The notes below the pieces were generated by a model that saw only the letters and a list, made by a program, of their open reading frames with translations, was not told where the DNA came from and searched no databases. From assembly GCA_022822625.1 (NCBI GenBank), contig JAJEAV010000033.1:3500-67499 (forward strand): a DNA stretch of 64,000 bases. The letters are read 5' to 3'. Position 1 is the first letter of the stretch. Each line of letters opens with the position of its first letter. Positions 32,288 to 52,475 of the stretch are shown in pieces. The translations under genes and the position numbers were made by a program. Source of the DNA: Gammaproteobacteria bacterium (GTDB lineage Bacteria > Pseudomonadota > Gammaproteobacteria > Arenicellales > Poriferihabitantaceae).

Positions 32288-32518
32288 CTAGCCTCTGTGC
32301 TGATCAGTGTAAGGCAGCAAAGCGAGATATCGGGATCTCTTTATGGCCGTGGTCAGCTGTCGTTGAAACCGTGTTTTGGTGCCAGTGCTGCGACGCGGCA
32401 GGATTTTCCCGGTTTCGCTGATGTTCTGATTAAGAATATCGAGATCCTTGTAGTCAATCGACTCAACGCCTGCCGCGGTAAAACGACAGAATTTTGGACG
32501 TTTGTAATGTCTGTTCAT
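32288..32518 (-). CDS. rpsR: 30S ribosomal protein S18
   Basis: '[39 protein letters not shown]...[19 protein letters not shown]'. Confidence 0.95.
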
Positions 32519-33171: not shown

Positions 33172-33399
33172 TGATGTCTCCTCTCGGTTGTTATTCTCCT
33201 GCAATTTGCAAGTCGAGCAAGGCAGTGAGAAAAGGAGTATTACTTTGAAGGCCTAGATTATACGGGCAGTAATGATTTGATTCAATCGTTTCGTGCATAA
33301 ATGTGAAGAGCAAATAAACTGCCGGTTTGGCAGCAAATAGATTGTCCACTATCGACCATCGCTCCCCTCGAGGGGAGTAGCTATACACGGTAGCATGTG

Positions 33400-34320: not shown

Positions 34321-34434
34321 ACCGAGTCTGTCTTCTACAGGAAACAACAAGGTGTCGATGGAATTTTCGGTTGTGGAACCGATCAGGGGTGATGGACATT
34401 CAATCTCGACTGAAACCATCTTGGTCCAGTACCT

Positions 34435-35799: not shown

Positions 35800-35856
35800 T
35801 CTTCAACATCGAACAAAGAATGGTGCCGGCTCAAGGTCAATTCATTACAGCAGACT

Positions 35857-36099
35857 TCATTTGGAGTCTTCTTCAACAGGTATTAGCTTGACGGGTCGAG
35901 TCGGGACTATGGTTGAAATGGCGTGTTTATAGATAATCTGGTTAACCGAGTTCTTCAAGAGAATGACATACTGGTCATAGGAATCGATTTGGCCCTGTAA
36001 CTTGATGCCGTTAATCAGGAATATCGAAACCGGTATGCGTTCTTTTCTTAACGTGTTTAAAAATGGGTCCTGCAGGGCCGTCCCACTATATTTTTGCAT
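35857..36099 (-). CDS. hfq: RNA chaperone Hfq
   Basis: '[42 protein letters not shown]...[11 protein letters not shown]' (Sm1/Sm2 motifs). Confidence 0.95.
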
Positions 36100-36154
36100 T
36101 ACTTATTACTCTTGATTTTATGATTTTGGATTCAAGGAAGACTTGAAATATCCG

Positions 36155-36183
36155 CTTATAAGTTAGTCCGATAAATATTTGAA
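36155..36183 (-). promoter_or_regulatory. Candidate sigma70 promoter for hfq (TTCAAA-17-TATAAG)
   Basis: The minus strand reads TTCAAA (36183-36178), a 17-nt spacer, then TATAAG (36160-36155), about 55 nt upstream of the hfq ATG. This is a pattern match only, in AT-rich DNA. Confidence 0.25.
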
Positions 36184-36223
36184 AAGATGTAAATTAAATT
36201 TCTTTTTTTGTTGACAATACAAT

Positions 36224-36243
36224 AATAATTTGGGAATTATATC
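36224..36243. repeat. Right boundary of the tnpB unit: 8-bp direct repeat AATAATTT (36224-36231) plus 12-bp terminal inverted repeat GGGAATTATATC (36232-36243)
   Basis: Hand-verified against the sequence. The reverse complement GATATAATTCCC occurs at 37469-37480 and is followed by AATAATTT at 37481-37488. Confidence 0.8.
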
Positions 36244-36244
36244 T

Positions 36245-37432
36245 TTAAGTAACATACTGTTCTGCGTCCTGCCCGGTTTTCCCGGAATTGCCTCCGGCAT
36301 TGACCATGACATCTTTTCTGACATTCTCGGGCGCACCGGGAAGAGCAGATTCCTGCCCCATTTCCCACCCGGCAAGCAGGTAACCCTGCTTGAGAATGTT
36401 CCGGGATGCATTCACATCCCTGTCCAGTGATACACCGCAACCACCGCAATCAAACCGCCTCTTGTGCAGAGGCATCTTCTGACGATGGCCACAGACCGAG
36501 CAATCGGTACTGGTGTTATGCGGGGCAACCCGTACTACTTCCCCACCGGCACTTTCAGCCTTGTAGGCAAGCATGTCTACGAATTTGCCCCATTGCTGCT
36601 CCATGATGGCCCTTGCAAGATTGTGGTTCTTGACCATGTTATCAATCTGCAAGTTCTCTACCGCAATGCAGTTATGGCTCTTCATGATTTCGCTGGTGGC
36701 CCTGTGGAGTTCATCGTGTTCTATGATTCGCACTCTTTCCCACTCCCTCCGCAGGGCCATGACTTTCTTCCTTCGGCTATTGCTACCCTTTTCAGCTCTT
36801 GACAACTTCCGTTGCAGTCGCTTGAGCGTCCTGCGGTCAATGCGCCCGGCATCCAGCGTCATGCCACTGGACAGGATAGCCCTGTCCTTCAGTCCCAGGT
36901 CAACCCCGATGGGCTCATGGGGCTTTCTGGTGCAGGTGTTCTCCTTCTTCACTACGAACTGTATCGAAACCCGGAGGGCAGACTTTATGATCCTAACCAT
37001 CGTTGTCTTCCCTTCCGGCAGTTCCTTGAACCGGATAGTGCCGATACCCTTTATCCTGATGCTGTTACCATTGAACCTGGGATCAGGAACATCGAAGGAA
37101 TGAACGCCCCTGTGCCTGCTCTTTAACCTTGGATAGCCCGGCTTCTCGCCCGCTTTTACCCGCCTGAAAAACGCCTGGAACGCCTCATCAATTCGCCTCA
37201 ATGCGCTACGCTGGGTCTGTGCGTGATACTGCGAAAACTCCGGATCCTTGCGGATTTTGGTAAGGGACTTCTGCTGTTCGTAATAGGATATTGACCGCCC
37301 TGTCTTCTTGTAGCAGTCTTGCCTTTCTTGCAATGCTACATTCCACAATTCAGTCTGTTGACGTAGAAATGCATCAAGCCTGATATGAACAGGTTTGCCA
37401 ACTTTTGCTGTCTGTGTGATGGTGCGAATCAT
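36245..37432 (-). CDS. tnpB: IS200/IS605-type accessory protein TnpB (RNA-guided RuvC-like endonuclease family)
   Basis: RuvC motifs are 'IGVDLGLKD' (D), 'CIAVENLQI' (E) and 'SLDRDVNASRNI' (D). The zinc finger is 'CSVCGHRQ...FDCGGCG', and the N-terminus 'SYYEQQKSLTKIRKD...YHAQTQRSALRRIDEAFQAFFRR' is typical. I prefer the ATG at 37432 over the TTG at 37450. Confidence 0.85.
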   Translation of the reverse strand: MIRTITQTAKVGKPVHIRLDAFLRQQTELWNVALQERQDCYKKTGRSISYYEQQKSLTKIRKDPEFSQYHAQTQRSALRRIDEAFQAFFRRVKAGEKPGYPRLKSRHRGVHSFDVPDPRFNGNSIRIKGIGTIRFKELPEGKTTMVRIIKSALRVSIQFVVKKENTCTRKPHEPIGVDLGLKDRAILSSGMTLDAGRIDRRTLKRLQRKLSRAEKGSNSRRKKVMALRREWERVRIIEHDELHRATSEIMKSHNCIAVENLQIDNMVKNHNLARAIMEQQWGKFVDMLAYKAESAGGEVVRVAPHNTSTDCSVCGHRQKMPLHKRRFDCGGCGVSLDRDVNASRNILKQGYLLAGWEMGQESALPGAPENVRKDVMVNAGGNSGKTGQDAEQYVT

Positions 37433-37441
37433 GACCTGATT

Positions 37442-37463
37442 GTAACACAATCTAAAGTGTTAC
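37442..37463. repeat. Perfect 7-bp stem / 8-nt loop hairpin (GTAACAC-AATCTAAA-GTGTTAC) between the left TIR and the tnpB start
   Basis: Read directly from the sequence. It lies 10 nt upstream of the tnpB ATG and 6 nt inside the TIR. Confidence 0.6.
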
Positions 37464-37468
37464 CTTTC

Positions 37469-37488
37469 GATATAATTCCCAATAATTT
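37469..37488. repeat. Left boundary of the tnpB unit: TIR GATATAATTCCC (37469-37480) plus direct repeat AATAATTT (37481-37488)
   Basis: This is the partner of 36224-36243 and was hand-verified. Confidence 0.8.
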
Positions 37489-37604
37489 CATACGAATTGA
37501 AATGTGGCTAAAGGAAACGACCTTCAAATGGATTGTAAACCGAAAAACCCCCCTTGCCGAAAATAATTGAATCAACCCGGGCGGGAAATCCAAATGGAAC
37601 TGGA

Positions 37605-38753
37605 TTAGCAATCGCTCCGCTTATGCCACTCGACAAGATTATTTTCTTCGGTGCGAAGTGGGGCAGGATGATCCGGTTTCTCATCGACCCCGTCTACCCA
37701 AAATGGTGAACGTACAGACCTAAGCCGTCCTTCCGTCGGGTGGTCCACTTCGCCGAAAAAATCAACATCGTTCAGGTGTCCATCTTCAAACAAATCTACC
37801 AGAGACTGCACGGCAGAACAGGGAATATCAAGATCGCGCAATAGTTTCAACCAATCTGAATTTGATCGTTCCGACATTGCCTGGGACAGGACTTCATAAA
37901 GATCGGCAATGTGGTCACTGCGCTGTGCGGGGTCCCGCACCCAATCCGCTTCTGCCAGATCGGCACGCCCAATAGCCGTAAAAAACTCTACCCAGTTCCT
38001 GGTACTATACGGCAACACTGCCAAATACCCATCCTTGGTCGCATAAGGTTTGCGATAGGGTGACACGATACGTTCATAACCTGTTGTTCCGATTGCTGGT
38101 ACAAAAGTCTCGCCATCAAGATGCTCGGATAGCAAAAACGATGCAATGCCTTCATACATTGGAACTTCAATACAGCATCCCTGTCCGGTATTTGCATGAT
38201 GTATGAGTCCTGATAGAACTGCCAGGGCCAGATGAAGCCCTCCTACCTTGTCGCAAATGATCGTGGGCAGGAATCGGGGTTCATCCTTGTCGTTGCGGTT
38301 GAGGTCGGCAACTCCACATGCTGCCTGAATGATGTCGTCATAGGCAGGTAGTTCGGCATTTCGCCCGCCACTGGCATAGCCCGCCGCACAGCAATAAACG
38401 ATTTGAGGAAATGCGCTACGTATGCCTTCAGGATCAACACCCAACTGCTTGGCAGTCACCGGCCGCATGTTATGAACCAGTACATCGGCCCCATCCAGCA
38501 AAGACAGCAAATGATTTTTTCCTTCGGGTGATTTCAAGTCCAGTGTAATCGATCGCTTGTTGCGATTATTGTTGAGATACCCCGCTCCCATGCCTTCTGA
38601 ACGAGCAGGACGGACATAACGGAAAAGATCACCCGAGGGTGATTCGACCTTGATGACGTCTGCCCCGAAATCACCGAGATAGCGGGTAGCAAGCGGACCA
38701 AGTACAATCGTTGTCAAATCCAGAACTCTTGCGCCCTTCAGCAAGTCATACAT
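37605..38753 (-). CDS. Family III (CaiB/BaiF) CoA-transferase
   Basis: 'LKGARVLDLTTIVLGPLATRYLGDFGADVIKVESPSGD' and 382 aa length. Confidence 0.85.
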   Translation of the reverse strand: MYDLLKGARVLDLTTIVLGPLATRYLGDFGADVIKVESPSGDLFRYVRPARSEGMGAGYLNNNRNKRSITLDLKSPEGKNHLLSLLDGADVLVHNMRPVTAKQLGVDPEGIRSAFPQIVYCCAAGYASGGRNAELPAYDDIIQAACGVADLNRNDKDEPRFLPTIICDKVGGLHLALAVLSGLIHHANTGQGCCIEVPMYEGIASFLLSEHLDGETFVPAIGTTGYERIVSPYRKPYATKDGYLAVLPYSTRNWVEFFTAIGRADLAEADWVRDPAQRSDHIADLYEVLSQAMSERSNSDWLKLLRDLDIPCSAVQSLVDLFEDGHLNDVDFFGEVDHPTEGRLRSVRSPFWVDGVDEKPDHPAPLRTEENNLVEWHKRSDC

Positions 38754-38939
38754 CTGTAATCTCTATTCGTGTGCCCGCGCAGTAAGGATGTCCGCAACCC
38801 ATCAAGACGTGAGCATGTTCATTCCCAGTTGCAACTTGTCTGCAGCCGGAGCATGTTCTGAACTTCTACCAAAAAGTCAAGTGGGTGTAGCGACCCCCTC
38901 CCGATCGCAATCATAGTAGTTTAACGAATCACCCATGTA

Positions 38940-40877
38940 TTACGAATTTGATTTTTGAAAATGAGGTGAAGGATATGTATTCACTGGGGCAAACGAAGTA
39001 TCGTATTGTGGGTAATTCTCTTTGGGATCAAATCCATTATTGAAAGTACCCTTGGAGTTCTTCAGTATGTTGATGGTGGCATCAAGTGCCATTCGCAAGG
39101 CTGGTTCGGTCCAGCCCCCCTCAACACTGTAGTTTTCTCCTGCGAAATAGATTTTTGAATTGCTACTATGTTCCTGATTATATGCCAATAATGCGTAATT
39201 CAAGGCCCAGTTTCTTTGGCGATACAGTTTAGCACAGCCGTGAAAATATGTCTGCTGTGACCAATGTATTACAATTGGGCCACTGTCTATATCAACATAC
39301 TGAATAATCGACTCGTTGAGTGTTGATTGACATATTTCCTCAAGCTTGTCTAGCAGAAACTGTCCGATATAAGAATTGTCGAAAGGCAAAAGTTTAGTAG
39401 CATCATCTTCCCAGGTATAACTCGCCAACAAGACACCTTGTTCTCCACTTTTGTCTGACCATTTCACACCATAGGCATCTTGCACATATTCATCAGTCAC
39501 AATAACTTGAGGGATTTTAGACACGCCATTTTCCCAATATGTCTCTTTCAGTTTATAAAACACTTTGCAACTGGTGATATTATGCTGAGAGTTCCGTGCT
39601 GACAAGACCAATGGGGGCATTTCTGATTGATCAAACCCCGTTAGTTTGATATTTAACTCCGAAGCCCACAAGGTTGGCGTAACAACCACATGATCAACTT
39701 CATAGGTTTCTTTGGTTGAATCTTCACATACGATGTTTATCTTGCCAGTTGATGGATCTTTCTGCAATTCTTGAACCGGAGAATTAGTCAGAATTCGTAC
39801 ATAAGGATTGGATTTTTTCGATGCCTCATATAGTGACGAGTCACTTCCGGGCGGAGGAGCGTAAAACAACCATTCGTCAAGAGCTTGAATGCCTTTGTAA
39901 AGCGGTGGTTCAAGCTTGTTTCCCTTGCTATCTGTAACATCCGAGTTGTAATGCGGCAAGTTGGATTTATCGGTGATACCAACCACAGTTTGCAAGTTTG
40001 AGTTAAACCCGAACATTACGCATCTGATAAACCACATTGAGCTCACTTCATAGAAAGCTCCCCAGCTTCCATCCCCGGACCCAATGAGCGCAAATATTTG
40101 TGCCTGATCATCATCCATGCCAAAACCTCCAAACCAACCATCATTTTGATATTTGGTAATTGCAGGTGTATATACCAGGTCATTTACATTCATCTGTTCA
40201 TAGTTATTTGAAACATTTTTCCAAAATTTACCCCATTCGGCCCCGCTATATAACTTGCCTGCCTCCTGTGTAAACAAGGATACAAAGGCAGAAACCTTCT
40301 GATAAACCTCTTTCAACTTATCGTTGTCCGGAGGAGAAGGATTTGACGGAGTATACGGCCAATCAATTAATGTCGGTTTCGAGTATTCGTTATCAGGTCC
40401 ATAGCCTTTGTTGATATAAATCCCAGTGTTGCCCGGTGCGGCGCCAGGATTGGGGAAATCCTGTAAAGTACAGTTGCCTTCATCCAAAATATAGTACTCA
40501 GATACAGAGTTTTTACTGTCGGGTTTCGAAAAAAATGGGAACCGCATGGCCCCCATTTCCATGTCAGTAACTCCATCTGTATGAGTTGTATAGTGCCTGC
40601 CACAAATTCTACTTGTCGCTTCAATAAGAATGATTTTGTAGCCGCAACGATACAGTTCCCTAGCTGCTGTAATCCCTGCAATACCGCCACCGACTATGCC
40701 GATAGTTGGCGGATTATCAGCATTGGGCGCGTTACCGATTGAATTCTTGTTGTTTTTTGCGAGTGTAAGCAAGTGATAATAATTGAATCGGAAATCAGGA
40801 GGGCTGGGATATGCAGGAAGCCATTCATCAGCAGTGTTAACAACTTGTTGAAGGGGGACATTAAATAGTGTCTTCAT
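38940..40877 (-). CDS. FAD-dependent amine oxidase / amino-acid 2-monooxygenase-like flavoprotein (IaaM / L-amino-acid oxidase family)
   Basis: Dinucleotide fold 'IGIVGGGIAGITAARELYRCGYKIILIEATSRICGR', 'EMGAMRFP' as in tryptophan 2-monooxygenase-type enzymes, and C-terminal 'IYFAGENYSVEGGWTEPALRMAL'. I prefer the ATG at 40877 (MKTLF) over the TTG at 40883. The gene is visibly AT-rich. Confidence 0.7.
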   Translation of the reverse strand: MKTLFNVPLQQVVNTADEWLPAYPSPPDFRFNYYHLLTLAKNNKNSIGNAPNADNPPTIGIVGGGIAGITAARELYRCGYKIILIEATSRICGRHYTTHTDGVTDMEMGAMRFPFFSKPDSKNSVSEYYILDEGNCTLQDFPNPGAAPGNTGIYINKGYGPDNEYSKPTLIDWPYTPSNPSPPDNDKLKEVYQKVSAFVSLFTQEAGKLYSGAEWGKFWKNVSNNYEQMNVNDLVYTPAITKYQNDGWFGGFGMDDDQAQIFALIGSGDGSWGAFYEVSSMWFIRCVMFGFNSNLQTVVGITDKSNLPHYNSDVTDSKGNKLEPPLYKGIQALDEWLFYAPPPGSDSSLYEASKKSNPYVRILTNSPVQELQKDPSTGKINIVCEDSTKETYEVDHVVVTPTLWASELNIKLTGFDQSEMPPLVLSARNSQHNITSCKVFYKLKETYWENGVSKIPQVIVTDEYVQDAYGVKWSDKSGEQGVLLASYTWEDDATKLLPFDNSYIGQFLLDKLEEICQSTLNESIIQYVDIDSGPIVIHWSQQTYFHGCAKLYRQRNWALNYALLAYNQEHSSNSKIYFAGENYSVEGGWTEPALRMALDATINILKNSKGTFNNGFDPKENYPQYDTSFAPVNTYPSPHFQKSNS

Positions 40878-40900
40878 GGTCAAATAAGTATGAGTTATGG

Positions 40901-41020
40901 ATAAAAGGTAGTGCGTGGAGGATGAGATTCATCAAGTGGCTATCGTTGTGCTATCGGATTATACTTTGATTCCGTCCTTGAATTCCACTTCCAGTGTTGT
41001 CCAACAGCAATTACTAATTA
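40901..41020 (-). mobile_element. Second IS256-family tail fragment (last ~20 codons plus the element end)
   Basis: The reverse complement reads '...EVEFKDGIKV*' followed by 'cttgatgaatctcatcctccacgcactac'. By eye it is ~85% identical to 15350-15437 ('GVKFKDGIEI...cttgatgaacctcatccccatgcactac'). Confidence 0.65.
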
Positions 41021-41111
41021 TGAGGATTTTAATTTTACATTGGGTGGTATTCCGGGTTTTAAAAAACGGGTGTTGTGGGGCTGCTCCGTGCCGGAGTAGC
41101 AGTTGGGGAGG

Positions 41112-41264
41112 TCAGGGTCCCTGTGCATTTCGCAGGTGCGGGGAAACGATCTGCGTGAGCAGGGAATGCCGCCTCTTCCGGGTCAGACGCCTGTCCGTCC
41201 AGTCTTCATGGGCCTCTTCAAATCTCATCAGTCTGGTCTCCTCTAGCCATTTTGCCCGCTTCAT
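41112..41264 (-). pseudogene. Short N-terminal fragment of an HTH-type transposase/integrase (decayed)
   Basis: The minus strand encodes 'MKRAKWLEETRLMRFEEAHEDWTDRRLT...', which resembles the N-termini of some integrase-type IS transposases ('...RLMRFEE.Y..W...RLTQEEAA.LLG'). It stops after 50 codons. Confidence 0.3.
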
Positions 41265-41403
41265 GATCTCTCCAAAAAGCGGACAGTTTATGTGCTCGCA
41301 ACATTAACAAAGTTTTTAATTGCAATAGGAAATCGAAATATACATAATATACAATACATCCTTGATAATCCATGTTCGCAAAACAAAAATATCGAAAGCC
41401 ACT

Positions 41404-42963
41404 ATGTCCTGGTTAGCTGTTTTCTTCATCACAATCATTCTCCTTGTAGTGGTTATTGCCGTGTTCAATCGTTTTTACCACAAGGGTTCGCGCGAGAAAG
41501 CCTTGATCAGGACAGGTGCTGGCGGACAAAAAATCGTCATGGATGGGGGCTGTCTCGTGTTGCCCTTCCTGCATCAAGTCGAATTGGTTGACATGAGAAC
41601 AGCATACATGGAAGTTGTGCTGGAAAAAAACAATTCCATACTCACGGAAGACCGGATGCGTGTCGATCTTGGTGTTGCGTTTCATGTCCGAGTCATTCCC
41701 ACCGCTGAAGGTATCGCTACTGCTGCTCAGACGGTCGGAGTCAGGTCCCTCAACCCTGAAAGACTAATTGAATTTCTGAAAGGCAGATTCATAGACGCAC
41801 TGCAAAGCGTTATCGCTACGCATACCATGGACAATTTGCATGAAAATCGATCGCAATTCGTAGCAAGAACAACTGAGTTATTAAGGCCAAGCCTCGAAGA
41901 AAGCGGGCTAAAACTTGAATCTGTGTCTTTGGTGAGACTGGATCAAACAGAGTTTTCTGCACTGAATGAAAACAATGCATTCAATGCTGTCGGGATGAGG
42001 AAGCTGGCAGAAATCGTTACCGCAAACCGCCGAAAACGCAAGGAAGTCGAATCAAGTGCGGATTTGGCGATCCGTCGAACAGAACTGGAAAACATCAAAA
42101 GCCGAATACTCATCGATCTGGAAAAGGAGAAAGCGGAATCTGAAAAAACTATCGAAACGGAACAACTCAAGGCGGAAATGACCCGCCGTTCATCCCATGA
42201 ACGCGAGCAGGCAGAAATTGCATCAGGCCAGGCCAAACTGAATCGAGAACTCGAGATCAAGCGCTCTGAAATTGAACGCGATCAGCAAGTTCGAACAGCC
42301 GAAGTTAACGCATTAAAAGCTGTCGAAGATGCCCGGATTCAAAGTCAAATCGAACTGTCTGAACGCAGGATACAGGAGTCTCAGGCAATGGCAGATGCCG
42401 AATCAAGCCGCAAGGCAATCATTGAAGCGGAAGAAGACGTAAGCCTGGTTCAAGACCGACTGACCGCACAAAGGGCAGGCGAAATAGCCAGAATAAATGC
42501 AGAGCTGGAATCGACAACCGCCATCTACAAGGCCGAAAAAGCAGCGCAAATTGCACAAATTGAATCCGAAAGCGAAAAAGCTTCCTCAGACCTTGTCCAG
42601 GAACAGCTGAAAAATGAAATGTCGGTGAAAGCCCAGGGAGCACTCGAAATGATCAATGCTGAAAATGCCATGGATTCAGAGCTGATTGCAATGAAGCTCG
42701 AAGAGAGGAGATTAAACGTTCTTCCGGACATGGCAGACAAAATGTCACGCCCCCTGGAAAAAATCGGCAAGATTCACATCAATCATGTGGCCGGACTTGG
42801 TTCTGCCCCCAAGGGCGAAAAACAATCCTCTGGTTCGATTGTTGATGAAGTCCTTGATCTTGCCTTTCGGATGCCAGCCGTTAAAAAACTCGGCGAGGCT
42901 GTCGGTGCGGAAATCATCACCCCTGAAAATAAAAACGATACAATCAAGAACAAGAAGAAATGA
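41404..42963 (+). CDS. Flotillin/YqiK-like SPFH-domain membrane protein
   Basis: N-terminal TM 'MSWLAVFFITIILLVVVIAVF', an SPFH core ('ALIRTGAGGQKIVMDGGCLVLPFLHQVELVDMR'), then ~250 aa of E/A/K/Q-rich coiled coil. The ATG is at 41404. Confidence 0.75.
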   Translation: MSWLAVFFITIILLVVVIAVFNRFYHKGSREKALIRTGAGGQKIVMDGGCLVLPFLHQVELVDMRTAYMEVVLEKNNSILTEDRMRVDLGVAFHVRVIPTAEGIATAAQTVGVRSLNPERLIEFLKGRFIDALQSVIATHTMDNLHENRSQFVARTTELLRPSLEESGLKLESVSLVRLDQTEFSALNENNAFNAVGMRKLAEIVTANRRKRKEVESSADLAIRRTELENIKSRILIDLEKEKAESEKTIETEQLKAEMTRRSSHEREQAEIASGQAKLNRELEIKRSEIERDQQVRTAEVNALKAVEDARIQSQIELSERRIQESQAMADAESSRKAIIEAEEDVSLVQDRLTAQRAGEIARINAELESTTAIYKAEKAAQIAQIESESEKASSDLVQEQLKNEMSVKAQGALEMINAENAMDSELIAMKLEERRLNVLPDMADKMSRPLEKIGKIHINHVAGLGSAPKGEKQSSGSIVDEVLDLAFRMPAVKKLGEAVGAEIITPENKNDTIKNKKK

Positions 42964-43047
42964 AACACGGAACCGTATTCAGATGCCAATTCCATGGACA
43001 TTTGTCTACGCTATCCTTACATACACATTAGAGAGGAGTTATCCAAT

Positions 43048-44283
43048 ATGAACATAAAACGACGTCAATTCATCAAGGGTGCCGGGGCAGCCAGCGCCTC
43101 GCTATTTGTACCTCAACTTGCATTTTCCGCTTCTGGACCAGTCAAAATGGGAGTGTTGCTTGACACCTCAGGCCCGTTCAGCGCTTATGGAACACCAATG
43201 GAAATGGCGACTCGCCTTGCTGTAAAGCAAATCAATGACGGCGGGGGATTGCAAGGAAGGGAAGTCGAAATCGTGTTTCGAGACACTCAATCAGACATGA
43301 ATAATTACTCGACTTTTGCAAATCAGTTGGTACGTGAGGGGCTGGACGTATTCCACGGAGGCATTCTCTCTGCATCCAGAGAGGCAATCCGGCAAATATT
43401 GCGCCAAAGGGGAGTACCCTACTTTTACAACGTATTGTATGAAGGGGGCGTATGTGATCGAAACACTTTTGCCACAGGAACGACACCCGCACAACAGGTA
43501 GATGCGTTAATTCCATATGCAATAAATAAATTTGGCGCAAGGAAACTATACGTTCTGGCAGCAAACTACAACTACGGACAGATTACCTCCGCATGGGTCA
43601 ATGAGTATGCAAAAGCAAATGGCGCTACCGATGTTGAAGTCGAATTTTTTGACCTGTCGGATGGCGAATTCGGACCTGCTGTAATCGCAAAAATCCAAGA
43701 AGCTGACAGTGACTTGGTTGTATCCGTTCTTGTTGGTGCCGCCCATCTGAGTTTCTACGGACATTGGGCGGAAACCGGCATGAATCAGAATCCCGATGTC
43801 CACTTGGTTTCAACAACATTTGGAGTGGGTAATGAACACAAAGTATTGCCGGCCAACCAGAGTGACGGCATGCTGATCGCAAACAACTGGGCTCCCGATA
43901 ACCCTTCTGTTCCAGAGAACAAGAAGTTTCTGGATAGTTGGATTGCGGAGTATGGCGATACTGAAGCCATCCACGAGATTGCGGTTTCACAATATCATGG
44001 TATCTTGCTTTGGGCTGAAGCTGCTCGACAGGCTGGTGGGGTAGACAAGGAGTCCATTACCAAGGCACTTGAAAGCGGCATCTCAATTATCGGGCCTGCA
44101 GGTATGGTGAAAATGGACCCACTTACTCACCATTGCAGTCTCGACATTAATATTATGGAGTTAAGTGGTCAGAAGCTGAATGTAGTTCAGAAACTCGAGC
44201 AACGTGAACCACTGGATACTCGACGCTTCTGCAACTTGTCTGAAAACCCTGATTCCAACGTACAGTATGAAATAACCCTGTAG
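43048..44283 (+). CDS. ABC transporter substrate-binding protein, type I PBP (AmiC/FmdD/urea-amide/branched-chain family) with a Tat-type signal
   Basis: RBS GAGAGGAG lies at 43031-43038. The signal is 'MNIKRRQFIKGAGAASASLFVPQLAFS'. 'VKMGVLLDTSGPFSAYG' and 'KLYVLAANYNYGQ' are typical of the Leu/Ile/Val/amide-binding fold. Confidence 0.8.
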   Translation: MNIKRRQFIKGAGAASASLFVPQLAFSASGPVKMGVLLDTSGPFSAYGTPMEMATRLAVKQINDGGGLQGREVEIVFRDTQSDMNNYSTFANQLVREGLDVFHGGILSASREAIRQILRQRGVPYFYNVLYEGGVCDRNTFATGTTPAQQVDALIPYAINKFGARKLYVLAANYNYGQITSAWVNEYAKANGATDVEVEFFDLSDGEFGPAVIAKIQEADSDLVVSVLVGAAHLSFYGHWAETGMNQNPDVHLVSTTFGVGNEHKVLPANQSDGMLIANNWAPDNPSVPENKKFLDSWIAEYGDTEAIHEIAVSQYHGILLWAEAARQAGGVDKESITKALESGISIIGPAGMVKMDPLTHHCSLDINIMELSGQKLNVVQKLEQREPLDTRRFCNLSENPDSNVQYEITL

Positions 44284-44344
44284 AGAAAATCACTTTCAAG
44301 TTAATTCTCTGGTTGGAATTACTGTTTCCCTTCTTCGTAGCAAT

Positions 44345-44382
44345 GAGATTGCGCTTCAAATTTGCAGATGGAGCGCAATCTC
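44345..44382 (+). promoter_or_regulatory. Intercistronic stem-loop (11-bp perfect stem, 16-nt loop) between the binding-protein and permease genes
   Basis: GAGATTGCGCT (44345-44355) pairs with AGCGCAATCTC (44372-44382). No clean U-tract follows. ABC operons often carry such mRNA-stabilising or attenuating hairpins after the SBP gene. Confidence 0.45.
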
Positions 44383-44448
44383 GGAATTTTCCTGATTTGC
44401 GCCCGTTCTCAAACAGCAGGGCTGGTGCATTCCCGTTTTTTTGGTGAA

Positions 44449-45315
44449 ATGGACATCACAGCCATATTCATCCTGCAGATTTTCTATGCCATAGCCTTAC
44501 TGGCACTGATTTCTTTCGGGCTCGCGCTGATATTCGGAATGATGCGCGTCATCAATCTGGCCCATGGAGAATTCCTGACCCTCGGAGCCTATGCAACAAT
44601 TCTTTCTGCCAAAATGGGTGTTAATCTATGGATATCCATGCTTGTCATTTCTCCGCTGGTGGTCGGCCTGTGGAGCTTGATCGTTGAACGCCTTCTGATC
44701 AGATTCCTGTATGGTCGACTCGTGTACACGATGCTGGCCACATGGGGACTGAGTCTCGCCATGGCTGGCGCAATGACCATGATTTTCGGAACCACAACCG
44801 AAGGCGTGTCAGCACAGGCTGGTTCTTTCTCGGTCGGAACCTATCAGGCAAGCCTGTACAGCATTTATGTGATTGTGATAACGATTATCGTGGCGATGGT
44901 GATTGCCTTTGTTCTATTTGGCTCAAACTATGGTCGAGTCGCCCGTGCCGCGATGGAAAATCGAGAAATGGTAGAAGCATTCGGGTACCCGATCAACAAG
45001 GTTTACATGTGGACATTCGTAGCAGGCGGCATGCTATCTGGTTTAGCCGGAGGCATATTGGCGCCAACTACGGGAATTTCACCCTATAGCGGAAGTGCCT
45101 GGATAGCAGATGCCTTCATCACGGTCATTTCGGGCGGAACGGGTTCGGTGATGGGCACACTGGTGAGTGCTGGCATTTTGGGGTCCGTATCTTCGATCAC
45201 CTCCTTCATCTTCAGTTCTGCGTCCGGCGGGGTCGCTCTGCTTATAGCTGCCCTTGTACTGTTGCGCATTCTTCCTACCGGCATATCCAGCCTGTGGCAA
45301 CAGCGTAACCGATGA
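44449..45315 (+). CDS. Branched-chain/amide-type ABC transporter permease (LivH-like)
   Basis: 'MDITAIFILQIFYAIALLALISFGLALIFGMMRVINLAHGEF'. The protein is polytopic and the ATG is at 44449. Confidence 0.85.
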   Translation: MDITAIFILQIFYAIALLALISFGLALIFGMMRVINLAHGEFLTLGAYATILSAKMGVNLWISMLVISPLVVGLWSLIVERLLIRFLYGRLVYTMLATWGLSLAMAGAMTMIFGTTTEGVSAQAGSFSVGTYQASLYSIYVIVITIIVAMVIAFVLFGSNYGRVARAAMENREMVEAFGYPINKVYMWTFVAGGMLSGLAGGILAPTTGISPYSGSAWIADAFITVISGGTGSVMGTLVSAGILGSVSSITSFIFSSASGGVALLIAALVLLRILPTGISSLWQQRNR

Positions 45316-46349
45316 GTCTTGGTCAAAACAATTTCACAAAGAGCATGGTTGCTCCATTGCTCTTGTCAATACCGGTGATTGTTATCGCACCGTCAGTGAT
45401 GCAGCCCTATGCACTGGCGCAACTGTCCATCTTTGCCCTTTTGGCTTTAAGCCTTGGCTTGATATGGGGGTACGGGGGTATTCTGTGCTTTGGACAAGGT
45501 GCTTTTTTTGGTATTGGGGCCTATTCATACGTGATTTTGGTTACGAATCTATCGCTCCCCTGGACGTCCCTGATTTTGGCAGTTTTCTGCACAATGCTTG
45601 TCGCCGGATGCCTGGGACTGGTAATGTTTTATGGAAGGCTGGGGGATGTTTATCTCGCTGTTGTTACCCTGGTCTTTACCCTGATCCTGAATCGATTCAT
45701 GAACGCAACCGCCGGACCCGAGTACCACATCGGATCAGCCAGACTCGGAGGGTTTAACGGCATTCCTGGCTTTGACATGCTGAAACTGCCATGGAGTGAC
45801 TCGATGTTCATCCCGGATATTCTGTTCTTTTACATTTGCTTTGGATTTCTCATCATCTCCTGGATATTTTGTCGCTGGTTATTGAAAACTCATTTTGGCC
45901 GGGTGATGATTGCCATTCGCGAAAACGAGAGGAAGGTCGAATTTGCAGGCTATGACACACGATTGCACAAAACAATGACGTTTGCGATTGGAGGCGGTTT
46001 GGCTGGCATAGCGGGCGTTTTATATGCAAACTGGGCCGGAATCGTCACCCCGAGCCTGTTCAGCCTAACCCAGTCTGCGGAGATTATCATATGGACAATT
46101 GTTGGCGGACTTGGCACGTTGATCGGGCCAATCGTTGGCGCCGTCCTGCTGATGCTGCTGAAGCTGTTGCTCGGATACCAGACAGTTGTCGATAACTATT
46201 TTTTGCTGGGAGTTCTGCTAATCCTTGTTGTACTGTGGTTTCCCAATGGAATTGCAGGAGCTACAATGCAGTCGAGATTCCTTCAAAAAAATACGGCGAC
46301 GAAAAAATGGCGAACACATTCAAACCGTACAATGAATGTCAAACGATGA
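45312..46349 (+). CDS. Branched-chain/amide-type ABC transporter permease (LivM-like)
   Basis: There is an ATGA overlap with the upstream permease. 'LIWGYGGILCFGQGAFFGIGAY' and 'AIRENERKVEFAGYD' are typical LivM motifs. Confidence 0.85.
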   Translation: MSLGQNNFTKSMVAPLLLSIPVIVIAPSVMQPYALAQLSIFALLALSLGLIWGYGGILCFGQGAFFGIGAYSYVILVTNLSLPWTSLILAVFCTMLVAGCLGLVMFYGRLGDVYLAVVTLVFTLILNRFMNATAGPEYHIGSARLGGFNGIPGFDMLKLPWSDSMFIPDILFFYICFGFLIISWIFCRWLLKTHFGRVMIAIRENERKVEFAGYDTRLHKTMTFAIGGGLAGIAGVLYANWAGIVTPSLFSLTQSAEIIIWTIVGGLGTLIGPIVGAVLLMLLKLLLGYQTVVDNYFLLGVLLILVVLWFPNGIAGATMQSRFLQKNTATKKWRTHSNRTMNVKR

Positions 46350-47091
46350 TTCAGGATTAGTTTCTGTGTCCAATCTTGCTGTACTTCAAATTGAGGATTT
46401 GGTCGTCAGATTTGGCGGTGTAGCTGCCGTTGACGGTATCAACCTTACCCTCAATAGAAACGAATTGCGCTGTTTAATTGGTCCAAATGGAGCAGGGAAA
46501 AGTACGCTGTTCAAGGCGATTGCCGGTTTGGTACAACCATTATCTGGCAGAATTTGGGTCAAGAGCGAAGAAACAACGCACTTACCCCCTCATCTGGTAG
46601 CCCGCAGAGGAATCAGTGTAAAAACTCAGGTTCCCAGTTTACTGGAAGGACTGACAGTCTATGAAAACCTCTGGATTGTTGCTCGACGGAAATATCGCCG
46701 GCAAAGCTGCAAAAAAATGATTGAGCCCGTTATGGAAAGTGTTGGAATCTCGAATGATTCAACCACAATCGTAAACACCATGGCTCATGGAAGACGTCAA
46801 TTGGTTGAGTTTGCAACAGCCCTGATCGCCAAACCTTCCATTATGCTACTGGATGAGCCGGCAGCCGGGCTGTCCGATAAAGAAGTTGCAGATTTTGCCA
46901 AATTGCTGCACACCCTGCCCTCCCAGATGTCATTACTTGTTGTTGAACACAACATGAAATTTGTGCAAATGATTGCTCAACAAGTCAGCGTTCTTCATAA
47001 AGGCAGACTTCTCATTTCAGGCGAACCGGATCTTGTTTTCAACGATACAAGAGTTCAGGAAGTCTATCTGGGCAAGGAGGCCACTGCATGA
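46336..47091 (+). CDS. ABC transporter ATP-binding protein (LivG-like)
   Basis: Walker A 'GPNGAGKST', Walker B 'IMLLDEPAAGLS', and H-loop 'VVEHNM'. Confidence 0.9.
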   Translation: MSNDDSGLVSVSNLAVLQIEDLVVRFGGVAAVDGINLTLNRNELRCLIGPNGAGKSTLFKAIAGLVQPLSGRIWVKSEETTHLPPHLVARRGISVKTQVPSLLEGLTVYENLWIVARRKYRRQSCKKMIEPVMESVGISNDSTTIVNTMAHGRRQLVEFATALIAKPSIMLLDEPAAGLSDKEVADFAKLLHTLPSQMSLLVVEHNMKFVQMIAQQVSVLHKGRLLISGEPDLVFNDTRVQEVYLGKEATA

Positions 47092-49415
47092 ACGGTAACT
47101 CATCCTTCAATTTGCTGACAGTCAAGAATCTGAGCGCGGGTTACTCGGGAATTTCCGTGCTTAGAGATGTCAACCTGCATGTCAGTGAAGGAGAGTGCGT
47201 TGGCCTTTTCGGTCATAATGGCATGGGAAAGTCAACACTGCTTCGAACCTTGATTGGCTTGATTCGACCCCTGTCAGGGTCCATCGAGTTTGACGGTCAG
47301 GATATTACCCATCTTCCCACATGGAAAAGAGCCAGACTGGGTATGGGGTACCTACCTCAGGGGCGCGGTATTTTCCCCAGCCTTTCTGTTTCAGACAATG
47401 TCAGCATTGCATACAATCCGGACACTCGAGACAAGGATGAGCTGTCTGCCCTGGAAAGTGCAATCGCACGCTTTCCAATACTGGAACCTCTGCTCAAGCA
47501 GTCCGGCGGCACTCTAAGCGGTGGCGAACAGCAGATACTTGCACTAGCAAGGGCACTTACCGCCGATCCGGTCATGCTGCTTCTGGACGAACCAACAGAA
47601 GGAATTCAACCTTCCATCGTGATGGAAATTGCGAATGAACTGGCTACGATCGCAAAAAATACCGGACTAACCATATTGATGGTTGAGCAAAACATAGATT
47701 TCCTGAACGTCCTGGCGGATCGAGTCCTGCATATTGAAAACGGTAGAATTACTGAGCAGGGGAATCGATCTTCAAGTAGCATAGCACAGCCAAAACCGCA
47801 ACCATCCATTCCTCGAACTGAAACTGCAGTATCTACGACAGATTCTGGTCAGGAAGAATCTTTCGAGATCACTAGTGAACCAATTTTGGAGAAACAAATG
47901 CCAGTATCAAGACCGACAATTGATCAAATGCAAAAGATTTCGTCGGACCTTTATTTTCATATCGACAAAACTACCCTGACTGAATACCTGGACTTGGCTC
48001 AGTCCACCATTGATGCTTATGACGTTGTCGATGCAATGCCTGATGAATTGCCGGAGGTGAAATACCCCAGAACCGGCGGTCATATACCCGCAGAATCAGA
48101 AAACCCATTGAACGCCTGGTATGTGAAATGCGATATTCCAGGATCCCCGGACGGCCCGCTTAACGGCAAGGAAGTGGTACTAAAAGATACCATTTCCCTG
48201 TCTGGCATCAGAATGATGAATGGTGCGTCAATTATGGATGGATACGTGCCGGATATTGACGCATCGATTGTTACCCGAATTCTGGATTCCGGCGGAAAAA
48301 TTGTTGGAAAGGCGCGATGTGAATATCTCTGCCTGTCAGGCGGGAGCCATACCAGTACCGGCGGGCCGGTCAAGAACCCTTGGCGAACTACTCATTCATC
48401 AGGGGGGTCTTCATCAGGTTGCGGTGCCCTGATTGGTGCAGGAGAAGTGCCCATGGCAATTGGAGGAGATCAGGGAGGATCAGTCAGGATACCTTCTTCA
48501 TGGTCAGGTTGTTATGGCATGAAACCGACCCATGGGCTAGTGCCCTACACAGGCGTTATGGGGATTGAGCGCACTATTGATAATGTCGGGCCAATGACCA
48601 GAACCGTGCATGACAATGCATTGCTGCTTGAATCCATTGCCGGTTTTGATGATGGTTTGGACCCCCGTCAATACAGCATCAAAACCAATGCGTATGCGAC
48701 AGACATGCTTCAGGGAATTGCCGGGTTGCGGATCGGGGTCGTCAATGAAGGATTCGGATGGCCAAACAGTGAGTCGGATGTAGACGAATGCGTGCACTCG
48801 GCAATTGATTTGTTGCGTACTTTGGGAGCAAGGGTTGAAGAGTTGTCAATCCCCCTGCATCGGCAGGGCTCTGCCATATGGACACCCATTGCTCTTGAGG
48901 GGTTAACCGATTTCATGATGCATGGCAATACCTTTGGGACCAACTATCGCGGCTTGTACATGACCAGCATGATTGATCATTATGCCAATTGGCGAAACCG
49001 TGCTGATGAACTGTCTCCCAGTCTAAAAATCTGCATGATGATCGGGGAATACTTCATAAAGCATCATCGAGGGCGATATTATGGGAAGTCCCAGAATCTG
49101 TCGCGGCGACTACGCCGTGCCTATGACAATGCTTTTCAGCAATTCGATCTTTTGGTCATGCCAACGATTCAGATGAAGGCAACACCCCTGCCACCTCCCG
49201 ATGCACCGCTATCACTGTATATTCAACGAGCATTTGAAATGATTGTGAATACTGCACCGTTCAATTGTACAGGCCATCCCGCCATGAGCATACCATGCGG
49301 ACTAAGAGATGGACTACCGGTCGGAATGATGCTGATTGGAAAGTACCTGGATGAGTCAACAATCTACCGGGCCGCATACGAATTCGAACAATCATCCAAC
49401 TGGCAGGGGCTTTGA
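47088..49415 (+). CDS. Fusion protein: LivF-like ABC ATP-binding domain (aa ~1-225), low-complexity linker, then an amidase-signature (AS) family amidase (aa ~271-775)
   Basis: The N-terminal part has Walker A 'GHNGMGKST', signature 'LSGGEQQ', Walker B '[10 protein letters not shown]' and 'VEQN'. The linker is '[45 protein letters not shown]' (nt ~47760-47897). The C-terminal part has '[17 protein letters not shown]' and the AS core '[47 protein letters not shown]'. There is no stop codon between the two parts, and an in-frame ATG sits at 47898. Confidence 0.8.
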
Positions 49416-49422
49416 CTACACA

Positions 49423-51219
49423 ATGAGCAAGCTCGGCAAACCAATTACTGATCTTTCCAATCCCCTGATTGATTATTCGATCATTCCTGCCTGTTCATCT
49501 TCTTCATCGGGGAGTCATGGCCAGAAGTCAACTCGAAAATTCGTACGGCCGGGCATGTCCCATGTCAAGGGAGATACAACGACTCCCTTGCTCGAATTAT
49601 CCATCCCGGAGTTGGTCAATAAAACTGTTCGCAACCATCCCCAACGAACAGCTGTGGTGTTTTGCGATCAAGACATCCGGAAAACCTGGCAGGAGTTTGC
49701 GGCAGACATTGATCGGCTTGCCGCAGGATTTCTGGCTCTGGGGTTGAAAAAAGGCGATCGTTTGGGCATCTGGTCACCGAATTGTTATGAGTGGTTGCTA
49801 ACTCAGTTTGCCACCGCTAGAACGGGAGTGATTCTGGTCACCATCAACCCCGCCTACAAAATATCTGAACTAGGACATGTACTGGAAACGTCGGGATGCA
49901 AGGCCATTATCATGGCTCAGCAATTCAAGTCCAGTAACTATGTTGAAATGTTTCTGCAGCTCAAGGTGGATACATCCACATCCGAATTTCCTGATTATGG
50001 TTTGCCGAAACTGAAACACGCAATCGTTATCCACAATCAAGGTCAGAATGATACGCCAGCTGGGATGCATGCATTTTCCGAAATCATGAGCTTGCCCGGC
50101 CCCGCACATATTTTGCGTCTCGACGAAATCAGTGCCGACCTGCATCCAGATGATGCAATCAATATCCAGTTTACCAGTGGCACAACCGGCTTGCCAAAGG
50201 GTGCCACCCTTTCCCATCGAAATATCCTCAACAACGGGAAGTTTGTCACGGATGCCCAGGGATTTACGGAAAATGACAAGTTATGCATACCTGTTCCCCT
50301 GTATCACTGTTTTGGAATGGTTATGGGGGCCTTGGGCTGTGCGACCAAAGGTGCGACCATGGTGTTTCCTTCAGAGGGTTTCGAAGCAGCGGGTACTGCC
50401 CGTGCGATAGCCAAGGAAAGGTGTACAGCATTGTATGGCGTACCCACCATGTTTAATGCAATCCTGACTCTCGAAGACTTTGATTCGTATGACCTGACCT
50501 CTCTGAGAACCGGGGTCATGGCTGGTGCACCCTGCCCAATCGAAATCATGAAACGAGTTGTCGATGACATGCACATGACAGAAGTAACAATTGCTTACGG
50601 CATGACTGAAACAAGCCCGGTTTCCTTTCAAAGCAACCTGGATGACCCGATTGAAATGCGGGTATCAAAAGTCGGTCGGGTCCATCCGCATGTGGAATGT
50701 CGTGTTATTGATGACGAAGGCAATACAGTGCCAGTTGGACAACAGGGTGAATTATGCACTCGCGGCTATTCGGTCATGAAGGGATACTGGAACGACTCCG
50801 CACAAACCAGGGAGTCCATCGACACTGATGGTTGGATGCATTCGGGTGACCTGGCCATTATTGATAATATGGGATATTGCAACATTGTTGGTCGCGTCAA
50901 GGATATGATCATTCGTGGCGGAGAAAATATCTACCCAAAGGAAATCGAGGAATACCTTCACCAACATCCGGGAATTCAGGATGTTCAGGTGTTCGGTGTC
51001 CCAGATCACCATCTGGGTGAAGAAGTATGTGCGTGGGTAGTTCCGGTAGGTTCTCAAGGATTAAACGAACAAGACGTCATTGATTTCTGCAAAGGGCAAA
51101 TTGCCCATTACAAGGTGCCCCGTCATGTGCGAATTCGCGATGATTTGCCAATGACGGTTACTGGAAAAGCGCAAAAGTACAAAATGCGAGAAGCCATGAT
51201 TACGGAATTGGAACTATAA
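49423..51219 (+). CDS. AMP-binding acyl-CoA synthetase (ACSF2/medium-chain-like); start uncertain (49423 or 49555)
   Basis: '[16 protein letters not shown]', 'YGMTETSP', 'GWMHSGDLA', '[22 protein letters not shown]', and '[11 protein letters not shown]'. Confidence 0.85.
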
Positions 51220-51497
51220 GGCCCGATTGGCAATCACTGACAACAAAACAAGCCCCTCTAATCTTCATGTCTTGTCTTTGGAACTGCAGATTCATTGATC
51301 CAAAAAAGATCAGGAGCATTGCGTTGGAGGCTTCAATCAAGCCACGGGATTCCAGTTTGTCTGAGCCTCATCAATCCGGACATTAACTATCTGCTGTTTC
51401 ACTTCCTGCCGAATGGTTGTCAGATACCACAAGCAATTACACCAACACAAGACTTTATCAGCCAGACACATCGCATCGGAACTGAAACGAGGATTGC

Positions 51498-52475
51498 CTA
51501 TTGCTGACTCGGCAACGGATTGCCGGCATCAGCCTTGACGTTCAACGACTGCAGATATTCGAAAATCATCCTCTCGGGGTTCCGATCCTCGGCATTTACC
51601 CACACTACGCTGGATTGATTACGCAACCATGTCAGTTGTCGCTTTGCCAGTTGCCGAGTCGCCGCTATGCCCTTTTCGATCATTTCGTCCTCGCTTGACT
51701 TGCCATGCAGATAATCGATTACCTGACGGTATCCAACGCTACGCATGGAAGACAGGGTTTCAGGTCTCTTGAGTTTTCCGATCAACATTTCAACTTCACG
51801 GACCAATCCTTTTTCAATCATGTCCAAAAATCGCACCTTGATCCGCTCATGCAAAATTGGCCGAGGACGAAACAACGCGATTTTTCGATACTGGATTTTC
51901 ATGCTTTGAGGACGTGATTCTGCCATCACCGACGAAGGAGGCTGGCCGGTAATTCTGAATATCTCCAAGGCTCTCTTGATTCGTTGTGCATCCTGGGCCC
52001 TGATTTTTCCTGCGCTCGCCGGATCAATCTCTGCAAGCTGTCGATGCAGATATTCCAGGCCCTTTTTCTTGCCTATCCGCTCAATTTCAGACCGCGCCTC
52101 CGAATCTGCTCCAGGCAGTTTTGATATTCCGTTTTCCAGTACCGAAAAGTAGAACATGGTGCCACCCACCAGAAGCGGTGTCTTGCCTTTGGCGAGAATC
52201 GACTCAATGAGAGACAGAGCATCATTTCTGAATTCTGCGGCCGAATAGCTCTCGGTGATACCACGAATATCGATCAAGTGATGGGGAACGCGTTGTAAAA
52301 ACTCCTGATCCGGCTTTGCCGTACCGATATTCATGCCGCGATAGACCTGACCGGAATCCACGCTAATCAATTCTGCATCCAGAAGCCCGAAGAGATGTTC
52401 TGCAACCGATGACTTGCCGACTGCAGTAGGGCCCATCAGAAAAACAGCAATGGGAACAGAGGGTTTATCTGCCAC
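51498..52475 (-). CDS. miaA: tRNA dimethylallyltransferase
   Basis: P-loop 'LMGPTAVGKSS', 'ELISVDSGQVYRGMNIGTAKP', and 'PHHLIDI'. The start overlaps the end of mutL. Confidence 0.9.
   Translation of the reverse strand: MADKPSVPIAVFLMGPTAVGKSSVAEHLFGLLDAELISVDSGQVYRGMNIGTAKPDQEFLQRVPHHLIDIRGITESYSAAEFRNDALSLIESILAKGKTPLLVGGTMFYFSVLENGISKLPGADSEARSEIERIGKKKGLEYLHRQLAEIDPASAGKIRAQDAQRIKRALEIFRITGQPPSSVMAESRPQSMKIQYRKIALFRPRPILHERIKVRFLDMIEKGLVREVEMLIGKLKRPETLSSMRSVGYRQVIDYLHGKSSEDEMIEKGIAATRQLAKRQLTWLRNQSSVVWVNAEDRNPERMIFEYLQSLNVKADAGNPLPSQQ

Follow-up and report, generated by a model that had tools for sequence, protein, structure and literature searches.

A probably old and remodelled insertion between miaA and hfq in a clade of uncultured Gammaproteobacteria

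Introduction

How do miaA and hfq, which lie side by side in most of the gammaproteobacterial loci sampled, come to be separated by more than 15 kb of metabolic genes, and is this separation young or old? The question is raised by contig JAJEAV010000033.1 of assembly GCA_022822625.1, of which a stretch of 64,000 nucleotides (positions 3,500 to 67,499) was analysed; this whole stretch is called the window, and coordinates given without a locus name are counted from its first letter. According to the open reading frame (ORF) listing and family models, the minus strand of the window carries nnr-tsaE-amidase-mutL-miaA (57529 to 51498) followed by hfq-hflX (36099 to 34435), with a block of 15,398 bp (36100-51497) in the gap between miaA and hfq. 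A first-pass annotation made from the sequence alone had described the block as an island of eleven unrelated genes and three mobile-element remnants, acquired recently. The comparisons reported here point instead to an old, lineage-specific insertion, which has probably been inherited vertically and reshaped through deletion, recombination inside the clade and a single recent insertion-sequence arrival. The observations that carry this reading are the distribution of the block, the monophyly of its carriers, its co-divergence with the flanking genes, the purifying selection on its cargo, a remnant of a cupin gene and the absence of the inserted element from the nearest relatives.

The miaA-hfq junction in reference genomes

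A scan with HflX, restricted to one genome per species, gave 80 loci in each of which miaA and hfq were located. The scan of reference genomes returned no close relative of the window (best identity at most 62%) and was used as an outgroup census; the nearest named taxa are Arenicellales including Ca. Poriferihabitaceae, with approximately 52% core identity and 60-65% over hfq and hflX. In this sample miaA is directly upstream of hfq in 48 loci (Gammaproteobacteria references), where the distance between the two has a median of 211 bp and reaches 1434 bp at most. The separation of about 15.4 kb first noted in the window is accurate and far beyond this norm. The broken link as such is not unique, since hfq-hflX occurs without an upstream miaA in 13 further loci, belonging to Legionella, betaproteobacteria, alphaproteobacteria and one Ca. 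Azotimanducaceae (L084), and since the widest gap of 1434 bp, found in L010 of the Ca. Poriferihabitaceae, contains doeB. The latter gene (L010 8219-9229, 496 bits) encodes N-acetyl-diaminobutyrate deacetylase of ectoine degradation and represents an independent small insertion at the same junction. Adjacency of miaA and hfq is therefore the rule near this lineage, with exceptions, and the 48 contiguous loci, together with two contiguous relatives of the window (L006 and L008), bear out the view that the block is an insertion into an ancestrally contiguous arrangement.

Distribution of the block among relatives

To describe the cargo, two modules are distinguished. Module A is a seven-gene cassette that extends from a flotillin gene to an acyl-CoA ligase gene and is adjoined by an oxidase gene, whereas module B comprises a LysR regulator, an acyl-CoA dehydrogenase, a TRAP transporter (DctPQM), a cupin and a family III CoA-transferase. 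Relatives were found by looking up homologues of MiaA, HflX and the ATPase-amidase fusion protein of module A, after which the contigs encoding them were examined. The carriers are uncultured Gammaproteobacteria of a single genus-level clade, which is a distant relative of Arenicellales, and six independent assemblies from relatives contain the same cargo at the same junctions as the window. The study labels of the relatives' samples presumably point to sponge metagenomes.

On the miaA side, the junction of miaA with the ligase, ATPase-amidase and ABC transporter genes recurs in L001 and L002 (MiaA 81% identical to that of the window), L003 (80-81%), L109 (fusion protein 83%) and L007 (MiaA 70-71%), the last being a multi-megabase contig. 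The flotillin gene is reached in L001, L003 and L007; L002 was followed from miaA through the ligase to the ATPase-amidase gene, and the contig of L109 ends within the binding-protein gene. On the hfq side, the junction between the CoA-transferase gene and hfq recurs in L004/L005, L104, L105 and L107. L107 (HflX 90%) has flotillin, oxidase, CoA-transferase, hfq and hflX, which is the order of the window minus a TnpB element; L105 (HflX 89%) has DctPQM, cupin, CoA-transferase and hfq; L104, whose HflX and MiaA are the same as those of the L007 genome, has the oxidase, a small ORF, LysR, acyl-CoA dehydrogenase, DctPQM, cupin, CoA-transferase and hfq; and L004 and L005 (MiaA 76%) run from miaA directly into LysR, acyl-CoA dehydrogenase, DctPQM, cupin, CoA-transferase and hfq. 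The CoA-transferase gene is thus directly upstream of hfq and in the same orientation in every block carrier from which the hfq side was recovered. In L006 (MiaA 73%) miaA and hfq are contiguous and are followed by hflX-rpsF-rpsR-rplI-dnaB, and they are likewise contiguous in L008 (MiaA 64%).

The content of the block varies by lineage: the L007/L104 genome combines modules A and B (about 20 kb), L004 has module B only, and the window and L107 have module A plus the CoA-transferase gene. Overall, the same genes with a composition like that of the backbone are largely present across the clade, at 76-84% core protein identity.

Such recurrence bears directly on the possibility that a metagenomic contig wrongly joins miaA to hfq through unrelated DNA. 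The window does come from a metagenome-type assembly (a 72.5-kb contig) that contains repeats and insertion-sequence fragments, but all internal junctions except those of the TnpB element are reproduced in independent assemblies from other samples, the multi-megabase contig included, and an assembly artefact is accordingly regarded as extremely improbable.

Age of the insertion

Were the block a genomic island acquired recently by this genome or species, its genes should not have diverged in step with their surroundings. Between the window and L107 the synonymous divergence (dS) is 0.59 for the CoA-transferase and 0.74 for the oxidase genes of the cargo, against 0.57 for hflX and 0.42 for hfq in the flanks; between the window and L001 it is 0.35-0.54 for the cargo and 0.35-0.66 for the flanks; and between the window and L007 it is 0.72-0.98 for the cargo, with 2.07 for the ligase, and 1.02-1.37 for the flanks. 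Synonymous divergence is unsaturated for the nearer pairs, and values of 0.4-1.3 exclude that the relatives are the same organism as the window. The ratio of nonsynonymous to synonymous divergence (dN/dS) of the cargo is 0.05-0.14 in comparisons of the window with L107, L105, L001 and L007 (0.08 for the CoA-transferase). As the dN/dS values are low and cargo dS resembles that of the flanks, the cargo is taken to be functional and approximately as old as the lineage splits.

Composition gives a similar picture. When 3-kb tetranucleotide profiles were scored against the rest of the window, z reached about 5 only at 38-42 kb, a span that includes the oxidase gene, and ranged from -0.1 to 2.5 elsewhere in the block. 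The oxidase gene has a GC content of 0.420 and a GC content at third codon positions (GC3) of 0.406, against 0.491 (standard deviation, sd, 0.014) and 0.497 (sd 0.038), respectively, for background ORFs. The mosaic composition claimed for the block therefore applies to this gene alone (42.0% GC), the rest being backbone-like, and because the orthologues in L107 and L104 are also GC-poor, the low GC content of the oxidase gene is long-standing. Among the usual hallmarks of islands, no tRNA gene was found in a scan of the whole window, no integrase was among the family matches of the block or the flanking ORFs scanned, and the two block junctions share no repeat, direct or inverted, of 11 nt or more. 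An Rfam scan of the whole window likewise gave no match.

Recent acquisition would fit the lack of the block in L006, in L008 and in each of the 48 outgroup loci that have both genes, the low GC content of the oxidase gene, the presence of a TnpB element and a repeat within the block, and the occurrence of module A at another locus (L108) beside a transposase fragment. It is nevertheless very improbable, given that relatives down to 76% core identity have the same cargo at the same junctions, that cargo and flanks are equally diverged, that the single deviating gene deviates in L107 and L104 too, that the hallmarks above were not found, and that the TnpB element is a separate, later event. The block behaves as an old fixed insertion and not as an active island.

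Six core proteins, concatenated to 2470 columns, were used to build a neighbour-joining tree (200 bootstraps, three outgroups), the topology of which is ((window,L001)100,(L007,L004)98.5)97.5, with L006, L008 and the three outgroups outside. The tree of hfq and hflX recovers the same groups and that of the CoA-transferase is congruent with it. Since the block carriers are monophyletic and the contiguous relatives fall outside them, a single gain with differential loss afterwards is the most economical explanation, and one gain with three losses accounts for every arrangement seen. Loss is further indicated within the window, where module B survives only as the CoA-transferase gene and a cupin remnant of about 70 nt. 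This degenerate 3' end (38762-38833, minus strand) is colinear with the last approximately 75 nt of the cupin genes of L105 and L104, and its alignment score of 18 compares with a mean of 9.5 (sd 1.4, maximum 15) in 300 shuffles (z 6.3). The remnant sits directly upstream of the CoA-transferase gene and shows that module B once stood in the window's lineage and was then deleted.

Several points weigh against a simple history of vertical descent. Support for the position of L006 relative to L008 is just 71%. Between the window and L007, cargo dS is about 30% below that of the flanks, the ligase (2.07) excepted. The combination of modules A and B in L007/L104 is pieced together from two assemblies with identical MiaA and HflX and not read from one contig, and every statement on promoters made below rests on consensus matches. 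Finally, the cargo of L003 groups with that of L007 (92%), whereas its mutL and miaA group with the window (84%), and therefore descent has not been vertical throughout, and the clade must have seen some recombination or replacement. Taken further, this conflict would suggest that the miaA-hfq junction is an insertion hot spot, into which modules A and B or variants of them entered repeatedly or were exchanged between lineages; that the sister lineages L004 and L007 differ in content, that L010 independently acquired doeB at the same place and that module A is portable, as its occurrence in L108 indicates, would all agree with this. Repeated entry is nonetheless considered unlikely, as all variants have a homologous hfq-side junction, comprising the CoA-transferase gene and a conserved leader of about 130 bp, the trees of the CoA-transferase and of hflX agree, and the cupin remnant places module B in the window's lineage before its deletion.

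The preferred history, that of an old insertion since remodelled, would then comprise four steps. It is proposed that an ancestor had miaA and hfq adjacent, like most Gammaproteobacteria, and that modules A and B became fixed between miaA and the hfq leader in the ancestor of the one genus-level clade. The lineages would subsequently have lost different parts of the two modules. In this genome alone, an ISDra2-like TnpB element would lastly have entered the spacer between the CoA-transferase gene and hfq, with the same orientation and some 130 bp ahead of the start codon of hfq.

The TnpB element upstream of hfq

The element is of the TnpB-only IS200/IS605 type, measures about 1.26 kb (36232-37489, minus strand) and does not occur in the corresponding spacer of L107 or L105, the hfq and hflX proteins of which are 92% and 90% identical, respectively, to those of the window. 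Its ends, placed by means of the empty sites in these two relatives from a single copy, are known to within about 15 nt on the left and about 5 nt on the right. In L107 the sequences on both sides of the spacer match the window (37591-38754 and 34409-36230), and a further 50 nt (37522-37570) match within the L107 spacer. No second copy was found, by DNA or by protein, in the window or in any relative locus examined. The insertion is the only recent event at the locus, separate from and later than the block itself. Where three mobile-element remnants had been counted in the block, the element is the only one there, and it is intact rather than a remnant; an IS4-family fragment (about 33685-33837) lies outside the block.

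The tnpB ORF (36245-37450, minus strand, likely ATG at 37432) matches NF040570 with 236 bits and has a GC3 of 0.614, about 3 sd above the background. Its product aligns with ISDra2 TnpB (8BF8, E 6e-36), including the RuvC Asp/Glu/Asp residues and the zinc finger, and the sequences GVDLG, AVENL, DRDVNA and CxxC...CxxC line up with the catalytic and zinc-finger motifs of the best PDB match, an ISDra2-like designed nuclease of 408 aa; judged by these alignments, the catalytic residues are intact. A hairpin (GTAACAC...GTGTTAC) marks the left end at about 37445-37463. The 200 nt over the 3' end of the tnpB ORF fold better than 200 of 200 shuffles (z -3.3), a predicted structure that would be consistent with a guide RNA scaffold, but this region is single-copy and without a match in Rfam. 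No second ORF is present within 36232-37489, and no gene for TnpA, the Y1 transposase.

Transcription of hfq

The DNA directly upstream of hfq is now block-derived and no longer that of miaA, in agreement with the first-pass annotation. A leader of about 131 bp (36100-36231, minus strand) separates the right end of the TnpB element from the hfq start codon and aligns with the leaders of L107, L105 and L004, only its last approximately 75 nt resembling the miaA-hfq spacer of L006. Inspection by eye identified a -35-like TTGTAT (36217-36222) and a -10-like TTTAAT (36193-36198), both conserved in form in four split genomes. A second promoter-like site, TCGGCA-17-TACAAT (37560-37532, minus strand), is found on the far side of the TnpB element; its counterpart in L107 and L105, TCGGCA-17/18-TATAAT, lies about 230 nt upstream of hfq and is a stronger site than TTGTAT/TTTAAT. 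A simple scan predicted no intrinsic terminator between tnpB and hfq, nor after the CoA-transferase gene in L107 and L105.

We infer that promoter-like sites of the conserved spacer that was inherited with the block drive the transcription of hfq, and that the TnpB element has separated the distal of these sites from the gene. Because no terminator is predicted between them, hfq is possibly also read through from tnpB in this genome. A more far-reaching proposal is that hfq forms the terminal gene of the module B transcription unit (TRAP transporter and CoA-transferase) throughout the clade, so that Hfq dosage would be tied to a LysR-controlled catabolic operon. The retention of the CoA-transferase gene upstream of hfq, whatever else has been lost, and the absence of a predicted terminator between the two in the window, L107 and L105 speak for this coupling, which is put forward as a speculative and unlikely arrangement. 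Under it, hfq in this genome may now rely in part on read-through from tnpB and its guide RNA, the TnpB element having entered between a conserved promoter-like site and hfq; the -35-like hexamer of hfq and the flank that would serve as template for such a guide overlap.

Gene content of the block

Module A begins with a gene for a flotillin/SPFH (Band 7) protein (41362-42963, plus strand; Pfam Band_7 and Flot), which holds the same position in L003, L007 and L108. It is followed on the plus strand by the genes of an ABC transporter, namely a binding protein of the urea/amide type with a Tat signal (42994-44283; Urt-type models, Pfam Peripla_BP_5/6), two permeases (44362-45315 and 45312-46349) and an ATPase (46336-47091), the last three again with Urt-type models as best matches. 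The fifth component is the N-terminal part of a 775-aa protein (47088-49415, plus strand), in which a UrtE/LivF-type ATPase (approximately residues 1-230) is fused to an amidase-signature amidase (approximately residues 271-773). The fusion protein scores 754 bits with the amidase model NF005565, above its cut-off, and 247 bits with TIGR03410 (UrtE). All five transporter components remain below the UrtA-E equivalog cut-offs (297 bits against 495 for the binding protein, for example), and the transporter is thus, by sequence, assigned to a related family rather than scored as an Urt equivalog. The cassette closes with an AMP-binding acyl-CoA ligase (49336-51219, plus strand; NF009233, 807 bits; Pfam AMP-binding and AMP-binding_C), whose likely ATG at 49423 was placed from the L003 orthologue.

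The notion that the ATPase-amidase ORF is a frameshift artefact was rejected, as this architecture is shared by hundreds of proteins 755-845 aa in length. Such fusions are common in marine Alphaproteobacteria and metagenomes, where they are labelled simply 'amidase' in the sources. With the fusion counted as one protein the block has ten family-supported genes instead of the eleven first listed, and these are not unrelated, seven of them making up a single cassette that is found as a whole at a different place in another organism. There, in L108, the same seven genes occur in the same order, with a fusion protein 74% identical to that of the window, between a transposase fragment and a run of ADP-ribosylglycohydrolase, hda, purM and purN genes, with neither miaA nor hfq nearby and with no oxidase gene called beside the cassette. 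Module A is hence a coherent and portable unit. The fragment adjoining it in L108 (3110-3922) is that of a DDE transposase, which fits past mobility of the cassette.

The oxidase gene (38940-40883, minus strand; Pfam Amino_oxidase) encodes a 647-aa FAD-dependent protein resembling L-amino-acid oxidases and 2-monooxygenases, with orthologues in L107 (87%) and L104 (83%). Among solved structures, its closest relative is tryptophan 2-monooxygenase (4IV9, E 5e-26, covering part of the protein), with L-amino-acid oxidases next. Beyond it lies the last surviving gene of module B, that of the family III CoA-transferase (37605-38753, minus strand; Pfam CoA_transf_3, 322 bits), the product of which is 382 aa long in the window, L004, L104, L105 and L107.

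With regard to function, the Tat-exported binding protein and the Urt-like transporter would import a urea-like or amide compound, which the fused amidase would hydrolyse at the membrane, and the acid so released would be converted by the ligase to its CoA ester. If the oxidase is a 2-monooxygenase, it could supply amides from amino acids.

The divergent spacer between the oxidase and flotillin genes (40884-41361) measures 478 bp, compared with 108 bp in L107, and includes a repeat of 73 nt (40920-40992), an inverted and 85% complementary copy of which lies at 15348-15420, both copies being intergenic; the spacer holding the former is about 370 bp longer than in L107. The repeat has no protein or RNA family match, and ORFs in 40884-41361 and at about 15.0-15.5 kb likewise matched no family, for which reason the repeat at 40920-40992 and the ORFs at about 15.0-15.5 kb were dropped as candidate transposase remnants. 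The repeat itself may be a miniature mobile element. The stretch 14962-15183 may resemble an IS256-type fragment.

Flanking genes and the miaA-side junction

The genes on the miaA side are all on the minus strand and comprise, after a clcB-like gene (57610-59355; ORF listing and family models), nnr (56015-57529) and tsaE (55477-55914), both with NCBIfam matches, a gene for an AmiC/AmiB-type amidase (54317-55480; family model), mutL (52465-54282; NF000949, 785 bits) and miaA (51498-52475; TIGR00174, 303 bits). The order from nnr to miaA is kept in L001, L004 and L006-L008. On the other side, also on the minus strand, are hfq (35857-36099; NF001602, 128 bits) and hflX (34435-35799; NF008280, 473 bits). 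The latter is not followed by hflK/hflC, either in the window (32515-34435) or in L006, L104 and L106, the three relatives that reach past hflX; the run that comes after it instead is rpsF-rpsR-rplI-dnaB-alr. Between hflX and rpsF, the window contains a fragment of an IS4-family transposase of about 50 residues (33397-34035, with the matching part at about 33685-33837). It sits in a stretch of 55% GC, and the hflX-rpsF spacer is 1230 bp long here against 211-835 bp in the relatives.

The miaA-side block junction is a convergent spacer between miaA and the ligase gene (51220-51497), in which a simple scan found no promoter-like or terminator-like site. The length of this spacer is variable, being 72 bp in L007, about 300 bp in L001 and 1.4 kb in L003. 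The extra 1.4 kb of L003 (2070-3473) holds ORFs of 145 and 206 aa with no precomputed Pfam match, the longer of which has a P-loop-like GAPGAGKT motif by eye. A metagenome scan with flotillin for the rest of the L003 contig returned only distant homologues of at most 42% identity, apart from one fragment of 188 residues at 57%.

Significance

The linkage of miaA and hfq holds in most gammaproteobacterial loci sampled, yet one clade has long tolerated metabolic cargo of 8-20 kb at this place, and for this reason co-transcription of the two genes does not appear to be essential. The block adds a further example of known genome flexibility and leaves the current view of Hfq and of genomic islands unchanged. 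For annotation, its value lies in a flotillin/ABC/amidase/CoA-ligase cassette under purifying selection. Given transcript data, the TnpB insertion 130 bp upstream of hfq would offer a natural experiment on how an insertion sequence affects a global regulator.

Comparison with known systems

The E. coli superoperon (PMC12249760), of which the first-pass annotation had seen an exact counterpart, is matched in the order and orientation of nnr to miaA and in the adjacency of hfq and hflX. The match ends at hflX, which is followed by rpsF instead of hflK/hflC, and 15.4 kb lie between miaA and hfq. In E. coli the promoters of hfq are located just upstream of the gene on the miaA side (PMC12249760), whereas the corresponding upstream DNA in the window consists of the CoA-transferase spacer and the TnpB element.

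Like flexible gene regions (islets or plasticity zones), the block occupies a fixed site between core genes, has variable content with modules gained and lost, and contains an insertion sequence. It differs from them in having no integrase, tRNA target or direct repeats and in a composition and dS like those of the backbone. The TnpB element shares with ISDra2-type elements (PDB 8BF8, 8EXA, 8H1J) the RuvC residues, the zinc finger, a tnpB 3' end predicted to be structured and the left-end hairpin, but it has no TnpA gene, is present in one copy and matches no Rfam family.

The transporter of module A resembles the Urt (UrtABCDE) and short-chain-amide (Fmd-type) systems in its five components, in their usual order and in its best matches to Urt models. 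In contrast to these systems its scores are below equivalog level, the second ATPase is fused to an amidase-signature enzyme, and the operon is bracketed by flotillin and acyl-CoA ligase genes. Pairs of tryptophan 2-monooxygenase and indoleacetamide hydrolase offer a last parallel, as the former is the best solved relative of the oxidase and the amidase has a sub-threshold match to the latter; an amide-making oxidase beside an amidase would form a pathway. Here the similarity is remote, the two genes are on opposite strands and the flotillin and transporter genes stand between them, so that the pairing of oxidase and amidase in the block is to be regarded as a lead and not as a finding.

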